From Exceevirus Xc38 (Duplodnaviria; Heunggongvirae; Uroviricota; Caudoviricetes; Schitoviridae), in the IMG/VR virus record IMGVR_UViG_2974723840_000001, positions 15,329-79,328 of that record: DNA of 64,000 nt, one strand, 5' to 3'. Position 1 is the stretch's first letter. Every line of letters begins with the position of its first letter. The notes beneath the pieces were generated by a model. It was not told the origin of the DNA. It ran no database searches and worked only from the letters and a program-made list of their open reading frames with translations. The position numbers and the translations under genes were made by a program. Positions 50,495 through 52,449 of this stretch are shown piece by piece.

Positions 50495-50778
50495 TTCATT
50501 TGTTCCTTCCTGAGAGGGAGTAAGTAACTAGGCCAGGCTTTAGGGTCAAGTAGCATCAAGGCATAGACATCATGAGCTTTAATCTCTACCTCATCAGGAG
50601 GGTTATCTCTCTCTGCTACGGTCATGAGATAAGCAGCCCTAGGATACACATGGTAACCAATAAAGGTACTACCTCTAGTGAATCTGTCATCTGTTTCCCA
50701 ACCCTTACGTATGAACTCAGCAGCTTCTGATTTGCTAATGAATAAAGCCATGGGATAGTTCCTTTTAAATTGACTCAT
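50491..50778 (-). CDS. Hypothetical protein, 95 aa.
   Basis: ORF only. Confidence 0.4.
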   Translation of the reverse strand: MSQFKRNYPMALFISKSEAAEFIRKGWETDDRFTRGSTFIGYHVYPRAAYLMTVAERDNPPDEVEIKAHDVYALMLLDPKAWPSYLLPLRKEQMK

Positions 50779-50867
50779 ACATGGTGGCTGCTCTCATGAG
50801 CTGTGATGGGTCTGTAGTTCACACCACCATGTACTTTAGTTAGTTGATTAGTCTAACTTGTCAAAAC

Positions 50868-51071
50868 TTATTTACCCTGATTAATAGTTACACCAGCAGC
50901 TTTAGATTCATGTTCAGCAATCGTAATACGTGCATTACGCTCTGCTTCAATGTCTTTACGCAACTGAGCAACTTGACCTTCAAGAGTAGCAGCCAATTGA
51001 GCATTTGCTTTTGCTGTAGCAGCGGCTTGTTGTTGAAGAGCGCGAACTGAATTATCAATAATTTGTGACAT
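50868..51071 (-). CDS. Small coiled-coil protein, 67 aa.
   Basis: A/Q-rich helical ORF. Confidence 0.35.
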   Translation of the reverse strand: MSQIIDNSVRALQQQAAATAKANAQLAATLEGQVAQLRKDIEAERNARITIAEHESKAAGVTINQGK

Positions 51072-51911
51072 GGGATTATCCTTTTAAAGTTGTCATCGAA
51101 ATTAAGCAGAATTGCTTAGGTGAACTGTCTAAGTAGGCTAGATAATCCTGCAAGATTAGAGCTAATACCTACCACTGAGTAGTTGCAGCTACTAGTAACA
51201 CCTTGTCACTTCCGTCTTCAGGGGAAGGCAAGATAGCCAGATCAGTTCGCCTAAACAATCATGGTGGCAGAGTTCCCCGGAGTCGAACCGGAATAGATAG
51301 TCATTACACAGTACTTTCAAGCGCTATTATTACTACTGTCTTTATATCTACCGTGCCTAGCCTTCAGTACCTTCGCACACTTACATGCATTTCAGTGTGT
51401 TACGCGATACGGCAACGGAACCCCATAATGGTGAGGGGAGACTTAGCAATTGCAAAAGCATAAGTTGTCTACTCCCCTCATAAGGAGCGGGCCTATGGAT
51501 TCACATAGGGATCATCCCGCATAAAGTGGATACTGGCAGGAATCGAACCTGCGAATGTTTTCTGTCCCACGTTTCGATTTCTCTACTAAGCAGCGCCGTG
51601 ACCATCTGTGGCTACAGTATCCATTAGTTGACCACCTATAAGTGATACACAATTAAGACCTCCTTTGAATATCTTAACTGTCATATAGGTGATCAGTGAA
51701 TCATTCCCTTTGCCATTTACTTGACGCAATTGCCTCTGGAATGTGAGGGATAAAGAGTTGCCGTCTCATTGATCTCTTTATCAACCCCTAATGTCCTACA
51801 GTGTAGGCTTCGGCTTTGGGGAGAATCTGGGTGGCAGTTTTTATACAGCTTCTGCCAAACTGTTGTTGTACGTCCTTCGGCCATTGTCGGGTGAGGTGAC
51901 CTTCTCGTACA
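51072..51911 (-). ncRNA. ORF-free, about 840 nt, structured region containing tRNA-like T-arm elements on the minus strand; candidate tRNA-like or other ncRNA locus.
   Basis: Minus-strand GCAGG-UUCGAUU-CCUGC is a perfect T-arm (forward about 51536-51552). A perfect 7-bp acceptor-like pairing GAUACUG/CAGUAUC spans about 51528-51621. A second T-arm UCCGG-UUCGACU-CCGGG is followed by GCCA (forward about 51262-51294). No clean 76-nt cloverleaf could be built by hand. Confidence 0.3.
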
Positions 51912-52115
51912 TTACTTACTAACACCTACAAAAGGAGCTAGATTATCGAGAGCTGTATTAACCTGCTCAGAAGCTGCTTTCAACTTACGTTGATGTTCTT
52001 CTGCTGCTTTGGTTTCAGTTTCGATATCAGCCTTAAGAGCTGTTAATTCTGTGTGAGCCTTTTTAAAGCCAGCCATTGACTTGTTAAAGCGATCACTAAA
52101 GTTACTATTAAACAT
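51912..52115 (-). CDS. Small coiled-coil protein; start reassigned to the ATG at 52115 with the RBS AGGAAATC.
   Basis: The ORF track start is upstream. The internal ATG has a good SD. Confidence 0.4.
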   Translation of the reverse strand: MFNSNFSDRFNKSMAGFKKAHTELTALKADIETETKAAEEHQRKLKAASEQVNTALDNLAPFVGVSK

Positions 52116-52164
52116 CGTGATTTCCTGTTTTGGTTTAAGGGCAAAGCGCAACAGTGACCGAAGG

Positions 52165-52449
52165 TCACTTACGAATGAATGTACTGAGATATGAACAGAT
52201 AGCTTCACTAGGAATTAGAGATAACTCATCCAGGTGACACTTCTTAAAAGAAATGTGTCTACCCATGTTGATTAGACTAGTAGGTAGAATCTCCATTTTC
52301 TGACCATTTTCTGTAAAGCAAAGAGTAAAAAATTTGCTATTAGAAAAGCGATTATAAAAAATGTTTTTACTGTCTCTATTCATGTGATCAAAAAAGAACT
52401 TATTTCTAACATCACTGTCTTTTATTACTATGTATGCAAATGTTTTCAT
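52165..52449 (-). CDS. Member of the small early paralogue family.
   Basis: C-terminal LDELSLIPSEAICSYLSTFI. Confidence 0.45.
   Translation of the reverse strand: MKTFAYIVIKDSDVRNKFFFDHMNRDSKNIFYNRFSNSKFFTLCFTENGQKMEILPTSLINMGRHISFKKCHLDELSLIPSEAICSYLSTFIRK

Follow-up and report, generated by a model that had tools for sequence, protein, structure and literature searches.

The mascRNA of MALAT1 is a transfer RNA (tRNA)-like processing signal, and the T4 RNAs known as RNAC and RNAD, which have tRNA-like termini, are matured together with the tRNAs of that phage. The small RNAs RNAC and RNAD (the stable 'species 1 and 2') come from the phage tRNA region and have no assigned role (PMC3014915), tRNA-like t-elements serve as end-processing signals of messenger RNA (mRNA) in plant mitochondria (PMC1920247), and GOLLD and ROOL are phage-encoded RNAs that lie near or within tRNA islands, sometimes hold tRNAs in a variable linker and have conserved kissing loops (PMC12286853). 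Here we analyse an 840-nucleotide (nt) gap between two genes of the Acinetobacter phage VB_ApiP_XC38 (hereafter XC38; MN508356; Schitoviridae, Exceevirus; N4-like). The window, that is, the whole 64,000-nt stretch of DNA under analysis, is the final 64 kilobases (kb) of this genome (100% identity), and all coordinates refer to it unless another locus is named. The gap (51072-51911) sits between gp74 (51912-52115) and gp72 (50868-51071), two genes of 67 amino acids (aa) each on the minus strand, which is the coding strand of this part of the genome. It looks like a chain of ~10 independently exchangeable structured RNA modules with the layout of a tRNA operon. A first-pass annotation made from the sequence had called the gap free of open reading frames (ORFs), structured and tRNA-related, and the analysis supports a non-coding, structured, tRNA-related region.

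Gain and loss of modules between gp74 and gp72

The phage collection contained only two relatives, nACB1 and At2; IMG/VR contained no relative of gp74, and gp72 was too divergent for tblastn. Further loci (L004-L009, L014-L019 and L021-L026) came from Logan and ENA assemblies that encode homologues of gp74 and gp78, together with one metagenome contig, so that the comparisons cover about 15 related loci from one phage clade. Read along the minus strand, the XC38 gap comprises the hairpins M1a and M1b, the two hairpins of M2, the long hairpin Uf, the T-arm unit Uc, a GCGGG hairpin, the hairpin Ua, the second T-arm unit M5, and a closed domain, M6, that adjoins a local hairpin ahead of gp72. Near-identical phages differ by single modules, whose gain and loss occur at short linkers. 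The segment 51827-51482 is gone from L006, L007 and L008, whose flanks match at 99% identity; L023 has retained M1, M2, Uf, Ua and M6 without Uc and M5; L017 has M1 only; and L009, nACB1 and L004 contain subsets of the modules together with inserted protein genes. New units also appear: L006 and nACB1 each carry an extra small tRNA-like unit (Ud, 62-66 nt; Ue, 84-86 nt), L018 and L022 share a 78-nt unit, Ug, to which L022 adds a larger tRNA-like unit, and a true tRNA-Arg(CCU) occupies exactly this slot in At2 and in the distant L021.

Structure was detected along the gap as well as in its parts, every module being a fold closed by a stem that compensatory substitutions maintain. The whole gap folds with a z-score of -3.1 relative to shuffles, and the z-scores of M2, Uf, Uc, the GCGGG hairpin, Ua and M6 range from -2.7 to -5.5, those of M1a (-0.9) and M1b (-2.0) being weaker. 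The T-loop motif GGTTCRANTCC has two matches in the 64 kb, both in the gap and both on the minus strand, where 0.04 would be expected, and none of 100 shuffles reached two matches. M5, Uf, M2 and M6 are rich in G·U pairs, and their folds are far more stable on the sense (minus) strand, which points to sense-strand RNA. M1a, M1b, Ua and the GCGGG hairpin have almost no G·U pairs and are strand-neutral.

tRNA-like top halves and the junctions between modules

M5 (51265-51424, minus strand) is a four-armed tRNA mimic of 160 nt with U(-1)|G1 at its start, an acceptor stem of 7 base pairs (bp), a T arm and G73-CCA at its end. The acceptor stem consists of G1·U72, G2-C71, G3·U70, G4-C69, U5-A68, U6-A67 and C7-G66, and the T stem (51292-51288 with 51280-51276) of five pairs that include G53-C61 and close the loop UUCGACU. 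This T-arm, UCCGG-UUCGACU-CCGGG at 51292-51276, had been recognised at first sight along with the encoded GCCA (51268-51265), and it is indeed followed by GAACUCU-G-CCA. The accompanying statement that there is no clean cloverleaf missed that this T-arm closes a complete, four-arm cloverleaf-like fold of 160 nt, in which two irregular 62-nt arms (I and II) take the positions of the D arm and the anticodon arm and C8 replaces U8. In the consensus fold of five homologues 93.5% of cells are paired, compared to 35-48% with slid partners, and seven pairs are changed on both sides; among four close variants, eight of the nine variable pairs still pair. The fold contains nine G·U pairs versus one C·A, with a minimum free energy (MFE) of -40.7 kcal/mol for the sense strand and -29.3 kcal/mol for the antisense strand. 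The apical loop of arm I, UGAAAUGCAUGUA, which includes AUGCAU, is conserved as far as nACB1, whose copy of M5 has lost G3·U70 and CCA; the unit is missing altogether from L023, L009 and L004. In IMG/VR the M5 loop pattern matched only a coding region of unrelated phages.

Uc (51526-51622, minus strand), a 97-nt unit, contains the other T-arm, GCAGG-UUCGAUU-CCUGC, which is located at 51552-51536 and agrees with the original description (5-bp stem, 51552-51548 with 51540-51536; T loop UUCGAUU). The perfect acceptor-like pairing reported to flank it is also present but extends over 8 bp rather than 7 (GGAUACUG, 51622-51615, with CAGUAUCC, 51535-51528), and the 94 nt then said to be enclosed approximate the total length of the unit, not the enclosed length. 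In a constrained fold, a hairpin with a 4-bp stem and a 4-nt loop stands where the D arm would be, and there is no anticodon arm. Uc recurs in L005 and L014, its acceptor stem with a compensatory U7A/A-to-U change, and is missing from L006, L007, L008 and L023.

Neither unit behaved as a decoding tRNA in model-based searches. The proposed ARAGORN check was positive to the extent of a single call, at 51526-51622 on the minus strand, labelled 'tRNA-???' with a 4-base anticodon; it returned no tmRNA and no call for M5. The proposed Rfam check gave no match in the window at the gathering score. With cmscan over 50700-52300 at E values up to 10, the only relevant match was tRNA-Sec on Uc (22.6 bits, E = 0.14; gathering score 47), the others being at chance level, and GOLLD, ROOL, other large RNAs, group I introns and self-cleaving ribozymes gave no match. 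Readings as a tmRNA, a group I intron or a ribozyme were discarded, having no ARAGORN or Rfam support. Neither ARAGORN nor Rfam finds a canonical tRNA gene anywhere in XC38, and the Rfam tRNA model, with which true tRNAs of related phages score 42-70 bits, recognises no tRNA-like unit of the slot in XC38 or any relative at its threshold of 29 bits. No Rfam family covers any of the modules, which on these comparisons are new RNA families. Among the three options offered at the outset, degenerate or unusual tRNAs in the decoding sense are not supported, since Uc and M5 are without a credible anticodon arm, U8 or a G18G19 D loop; a tRNA-like structure for processing, or another non-coding RNA, is the best fit. 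Given the missing anticodon arm, Uc and M5 would probably use host tRNA-processing enzymes rather than take part in decoding.

The T-arm units (Uc and M5 in XC38; Ud, Ue and Ug in relatives) retain the acceptor stem, T stem and T loop intact, and their D and anticodon parts are missing, shrunken or, in the case of the two 62-nt arms, expanded. In the units with a 7/5 register (M5, Ud, Ue and Ug) the acceptor stem is fully paired in seven of nine copies, as is the T stem; G(+1) and purine 73 are found in all nine, U(-1) in seven and C74C75 in eight. Between L018 and L022 the T stem of Ug is kept by two compensatory pairs while its 'anticodon' loop goes from 7 to 5 nt. Because the top stems are near-perfect, the lower halves are unlike one another and the Ug loop shrinks, selection appears to act on the tRNA top half and not on decoding.

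The modules also share a junction syntax. A module starts with G after U and ends in purine-C-C (sometimes CCA), and a spacer of 2-6 nt leads to the next U|G; the Ua hairpin has U(-1) in 7/8, G(+1) in 8/8 and CC in 6/8 copies. Real tRNA arrays of the clade have encoded CCA and spacers of 1-7 nt. U(-1), G(+1) and 3' RCCA are determinants for bacterial ribonuclease P (RNase P), and in a test of the sequences we found the corresponding substrate features: a stacked acceptor/T-like helix, U(-1), G(+1) and 3' RCC(A). Both the 3' RCCA motif and the residue that lies 5' to the cut are features on which RNase P depends (PMC12710915).

Because the junction syntax matches both the tRNA arrays of the clade and the RNase P determinants, we propose the following mechanism. 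The array would be co-transcribed with the small genes upstream and downstream, and host RNase P would cut at each U(-1)|G(+1) junction ahead of a stem that ends in purine-C-C(A). The same cut would leave a short 3' trailer on the preceding module, and as in ordinary tRNA operons this end would then be trimmed back or filled up by the CCA-adding enzyme. The expected outcome is a set of stable small RNAs and the separation of the upstream mRNA from the downstream mRNA, which would retain M6 as a structured leader. With moderate confidence, we thus favour an accessory slot in the early/middle region of the genome in which tandem non-coding RNA modules, written in tRNA-operon syntax, would be excised by the tRNA maturation machinery. 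The gap is assigned to the early/middle region because the large subunit of phage RNA polymerase II (PF00940) is encoded ~4 kb upstream of it, on the same strand, in relatives.

Hairpin modules, the M6 domain and the surrounding genes

The remaining modules, all on the minus strand, are hairpins of varied design. M1a (51867-51911; UGUACG...CGUACA, with the conserved loop motif CCCGACA) directly follows the stop codon of gp74 and is found in all relatives, the distant L021 and At2 included, with three of six stem pairs compensatory. M1b (51831-51856) consists of GGCAG, the loop AAGCUGUAUAAAAA and CUGCC followed by A-C, beyond which the variable slot starts; its stem covaries (GGCAG, GGUAG, GAUGG, GAUC; three of five pairs compensatory), and its conserved loop motif, CUGUA..AAAAAC, is unique in the window. 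Hairpin A of M2 (51745-51788; GGGG-UU-GAUAAAGAG...CUCUUUAUC-CCUC) is 88-90% identical to its counterparts in L023 and in L004, a metagenome contig from an otherwise distant phage, and the changes preserve pairs. Hairpin B (51702-51743; CAUUCC...GGAAUG), with the palindrome GCAAUUGC at 51733-51726, is kept in L004 and L005, and L023 has GUAAUUGC. Together the two hairpins (51702-51790) give z = -2.9 and a sense fold 6 kcal/mol better than the antisense fold.

Uf (51629-51695) is a 67-nt hairpin (z = -5.5; MFE -25.9 kcal/mol for sense and -14.8 kcal/mol for antisense); it is also present in L005, L009 and L023, with a compensatory A-U to C-G change in the inner stem in L009. Its loop region contains AAGGAGGU, two bases of which are paired in the predicted fold. 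At 51660-51634 this perfect Shine-Dalgarno sequence is followed 8 nt later by a mini-ORF of four codons, GUG-UAU-CAC-UUA-UAG, and the arrangement is conserved in L005, L009 and L023. The GCGGG hairpin (51487-51520; GCGGG...CCCGC, inner stem CCUAUG/CAUAGG; z = -2.7) was found only in XC38 and L014. Ua (51429-51480; (U)GAGGGGAG...CUCCCCUC(A), apical loop UUUUGCAAUU, then CCA) contains the long stem noted early on at about 51431-51480, in which GAGGGGAG (51479-51472) pairs with CUCCCCUC (51440-51433). It occurs in ten loci with an invariant loop core, UUGCAAUU; six of the eight outer stem pairs are compensatory, a single non-pair was counted in 54 cells, and z = -3.7. The palindrome GCAATTGC has only two occurrences in the 64 kb, in the loops of M2 and Ua, with 0.82 expected per window. 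By analogy with GOLLD and ROOL (PMC12286853), these palindromic loops and AUGCAU of M5 could form kissing-loop contacts, or they could be protein-binding sites. As candidates for a repeated motif family, the local hairpin, the M1b loop and the linker CACCCAATG were each unique or at chance level in the 64 kb, and this absence of recurrence ruled out the idea that they are repeated promoters.

Although the gap was initially treated as one region, its 3' quarter, upstream of gp72, is a separate closed domain that had been missed. This domain, M6 (51111-51259, minus strand; 149 nt), is built from a 10-bp closing helix, AUUGUUUAGG/CCUAAGCAAU, and a second helix around three hairpins, with hairpin loops CCUGAAGAC and CUGCAA. 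RNAalifold predicted 62 pairs in a three-phage consensus (59 within M6), 11 of them compensatory; M6 has z = -4.2, and six of seven pairs of the second helix are compensatory. The closing helix (AUUGYUUAGG/CCUAAGCAAU), the local hairpin and the leader are kept in all relatives. The interior always folds as a closed domain, though it differs between near-identical phages: the type with loops CCUGAAGAC and CUGCAA is common to XC38, nACB1, At2, L004, L018 and L021, L009 has a diverged version, and L005, L006 and L007 each have a different interior. L022 has two M6-like closed domains in a row ahead of the conserved local hairpin, and the second (L022:1930-2140) differs from the first in its interior.

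The local hairpin (51103-51118, minus strand; UAAGCA-AUUC-UGCUUA) is perfect, unique in the window and nearly invariant in all relatives, and it is followed by the conserved leader and Shine-Dalgarno sequence of gp72, which run to 51072. One segment serves both as the 3' strand of the closing helix of M6 and as the 5' arm of the local hairpin, which makes the two structures mutually exclusive. A leader switch and a further exchangeable RNA cassette are both possible roles for M6. An M6 23-mer had no match in IMG/VR, and an M6 21-mer had one chance match among GTDB genomes, in a Zixibacteria metagenome-assembled genome. An analogy with integron attC sites was rejected, the order of the arms being inverted relative to attC. 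The 3' end of M6 (28 nt, starting with GUUCAC in XC38) was likewise considered as a mimic of clustered regularly interspaced short palindromic repeats (CRISPR) and dropped; GUUCAC is not kept in L005 and L007, and the hairpin is not known to resemble the I-F repeats of Acinetobacter.

The G+C content of the gap is 0.45-0.49, compared to 0.28-0.42 for neighbouring genes, and neither a sigma-70 promoter nor an intrinsic terminator was predicted on its sense strand. Outside the gap, two copies of a GC-rich hairpin with a 6-7 bp stem and a TTC loop (53835-53809 and 52169-52142, minus strand) are each followed by (T)TG(A)GCGCTTTG and YYCTT(T)AAA..AAACCAA and precede the start codons of gp78 and gp74, respectively, by 25-40 nt. 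They may be candidate N4-type hairpin promoters (compare PMC9163698) or shared leaders; if the copy upstream of gp74 is a promoter, the gap would be part of the gp74 transcript. Three further hairpins with 6-7 bp stems and 3-nt loops (63320, 63293 and 63251, minus strand) fall within ~70 nt of one another, ~700 nt from the right end of the genome, and look as would be expected of early promoters of the virion RNA polymerase. In two relatives, a gene resembling tRNA-Trp(CCA), whose D arm has a stem of 4 bp and a loop of only 3 nt, is missed by ARAGORN and Rfam and directly follows the true tRNA cluster (L017:6740-6810, L021:8998-9070). Downstream of it lies a further non-coding stretch of 400-850 nt (L017:6810-7668, L021:9070-9488) with an M1b-like GGCAG...CUGCC-ACC hairpin (L017:6817-6838, L021:9331-9352), and this stretch looks like a second locus rich in non-coding RNA. 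In L024, a close relative, an HNH/NUMOD4 homing-endonuclease gene (L024:114-683) is inserted upstream of the gp78 homologue.

Alternative explanations and known systems

The modules could be decaying remnants of a former tRNA cluster, functionless pseudogenes whose stems reflect nothing more than recent origin. True tRNAs in the same slot of At2 and L021, the lack of any canonical tRNA gene in XC38, the dispensability of modules in close relatives and the nACB1 copy of M5 without G3·U70 and CCA would all agree with such a history. Decay, however, should strike acceptor and T arms as much as the rest, and these are near-perfect in five independent unit types whose lower halves are unrecognisable; the substitutions in stems are overwhelmingly pair-preserving, including the two compensatory pairs in the Ug T stem, the loop motifs UUGCAAUU and AUGCAUGUA are kept between phages whose M5 copies are only ~52% identical, and Ua, Uf, M2 and M6 were never tRNA-shaped. 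We therefore consider decay unlikely. A similar judgement applies to the view that the gap consists mainly of cis-acting mRNA elements, a structured 3' untranslated region and a 5' leader that would govern how stable or how well translated the two flanking genes' mRNAs are, with M6 and the local hairpin as a switch, and would release no free RNAs. M1 is always found behind the stop codon of the upstream gene, and M6 with the local hairpin always ahead of the downstream gene, also where protein genes are inserted between M1 and M6; the closing helix and the local hairpin share a strand and so cannot form together. This view is compatible with the favoured explanation as far as M1 and M6 are concerned, but as an account of the whole gap it is improbable, as it leaves the T loops, the 7/5 register, the encoded CCA and the tRNA-operon linkers unexplained, and wholesale exchange of the M6 interior between near-identical phages would be odd for a tuned leader.

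Function at the level of DNA, as N4-type hairpin promoters, protein-binding palindromes, a replication origin or recombination hot spots, has a precedent in that N4-like phages use DNA hairpin promoters, and in LUZ7 early transcription begins at a G that follows the centre of the hairpin by 13-14 nt (PMC9163698). The centre of the local hairpin (51118-51103) is likewise followed by a G, at 14 nt. M1a, M1b, Ua and the GCGGG hairpin are nearly free of G·U pairs and show no strand preference in folding, and the conserved loops are palindromic (GCAATTGC, ATGCAT). This possibility is nevertheless decidedly unlikely given that M5, Uf, M2 and M6 are strand-asymmetric, with G·U pairs that would be C·A mismatches on the other strand, that no motif recurs elsewhere in the 64 kb as a promoter family should, and that the T-loop sequences point to RNA. 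Least credible of all is a missed protein gene, whether the 47-aa coding sequence VBApiPXC38_73 annotated in GenBank (51586-51729, minus strand; overlapping M2, Uf and the 5' part of Uc) or one with a non-standard start, for which the strong Shine-Dalgarno sequence AAGGAGGU ahead of a UUG/GUG start inside Uf might speak. The first-pass annotation had stated that the gap has no minus-strand ORF; ORFs of up to 55 aa do exist there, one of them annotated in GenBank, but none is conserved, and searches of the gap ORFs against Pfam and PHROGs gave no match, the sole hit having E = 0.044. The 47-aa ORF is truncated in L004 and without its 5' part in L009, and a 46-aa ORF behind the strong Shine-Dalgarno sequence is shifted in frame by a 1-nt deletion in L005. 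The 86-aa plus-strand ORF (51203-51463), suspected from the beginning to be spurious, has acquired interrupting stop codons in four relatives. An AUG precedes every module, and a coding role for it was also considered and rejected for want of a consistent frame, stop codon or Shine-Dalgarno sequence. VBApiPXC38_73 is thus probably not a gene but a mis-annotation.

Several points weigh against excision by the tRNA maturation machinery. Whether the array is transcribed, where it is cut and how stable the products are can so far only be predicted from sequence, and the sample is small and from one clade, whose shared ancestry inflates the apparent covariation. The tRNA-like fold of Uc lies 2.6-5 kcal/mol above the MFE fold, in which the T loop is sequestered by pairing with the internal GAAAUCGAA. 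Uc ends in A-CUU, a complete encoded CCA being limited in XC38 to M5 and Ua, and in several modules a possible U(-1)-A73 pair could displace the RNase P cut or make it less efficient. Moreover, no module is essential, because close relatives lack single modules, including both T-arm units in L023.

Were the modules excised as proposed, the freed top-half mimics might themselves be active. M5 and Ug, with G3·U70, purine 73 and CCA, might be completed with CCA and perhaps charged by alanyl-tRNA synthetase (AlaRS), serving as decoys for host defence toxins or for enzymes that attack or read the acceptor end of tRNAs, or might multimerise with the palindromic-loop hairpins (UUGCAAUU/GCAAUUGC, AUGCAU). 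We regard such activity as rather unlikely; if it is real, the rapid turnover of cassettes in the slot would be a sign of an arms race. The proposed excision alone would mean that an N4-like phage gives ~1% of its genome to exchangeable, non-decoding tRNA mimics and ornate hairpins, and the array would be a natural test of the minimal part of a tRNA that RNase P, the CCA-adding enzyme and possibly AlaRS can handle. The slot would also be a hot spot at which near-identical phages swap RNA cassettes instead of protein genes, a pattern usual for counter-defence genes.

The modules are mentioned neither in the nACB1 paper (PMC10057805) nor in the LUZ7 transcriptome paper (PMC9163698), and comparison with established RNA classes places them beside several without joining any. 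Uc and M5 have in common with canonical tRNA (RF00005) the acceptor stem, the T stem, the T loop UUCGAYU and G53-C61, and M5 in addition has 7/7 and 5/5 pairs, wobbles included, purine 73 and CCA; both differ in the absence of U8, of the G18G19 loop and of a 5-bp/7-nt anticodon arm, and in their lengths of 97 and 160 nt. Uc has the 8/5 register of bacterial tRNA-Sec (RF01852) and a D-like hairpin of 4 bp and 4 nt, whereas tRNA-Sec has a 6-bp D stem with a 4-nt loop, a long variable arm and a UCA anticodon; Uc lacks the UCA anticodon arm and reaches 22.6 of the required 47 bits, failing this test, and M5 has no score. M5 and Ug resemble tmRNA, whose pattern is an alanine-type acceptor with no anticodon, in having G3·U70 within an acceptor stem of 7 bp, a T arm and (A/G)CCA encoded at the end, but no tag-like ORF was seen in them, they have no pseudoknot ring and are of the wrong size, ARAGORN and Rfam were negative, and G3·U70 is not kept in the M5 of nACB1.

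The likeness to GOLLD and ROOL is looser: the XC38 gap is ~840 nt long, tRNA-associated and equipped with conserved palindromic loops, but it has no Rfam match to them even at E = 10 and consists of independently lost modules rather than one fold. The nearest analogues are t-elements and the T4 RNAs. Like t-elements, the XC38 units are non-decoding tRNA-like folds that would lie inside longer transcripts and define mRNA ends by way of tRNA-processing enzymes (PMC1920247). The resemblance to t-elements and mascRNA is one of analogy and not homology, as XC38 has many units in tandem, several of them plain hairpins, with predicted cleavage sites. Compared by description, RNAC and RNAD of T4 are likewise small RNAs from a tRNA-associated phage locus (PMC3014915), from which the XC38 slot differs in having no true tRNA, in its modular cassettes and in its 160-nt, four-arm tRNA mimic.

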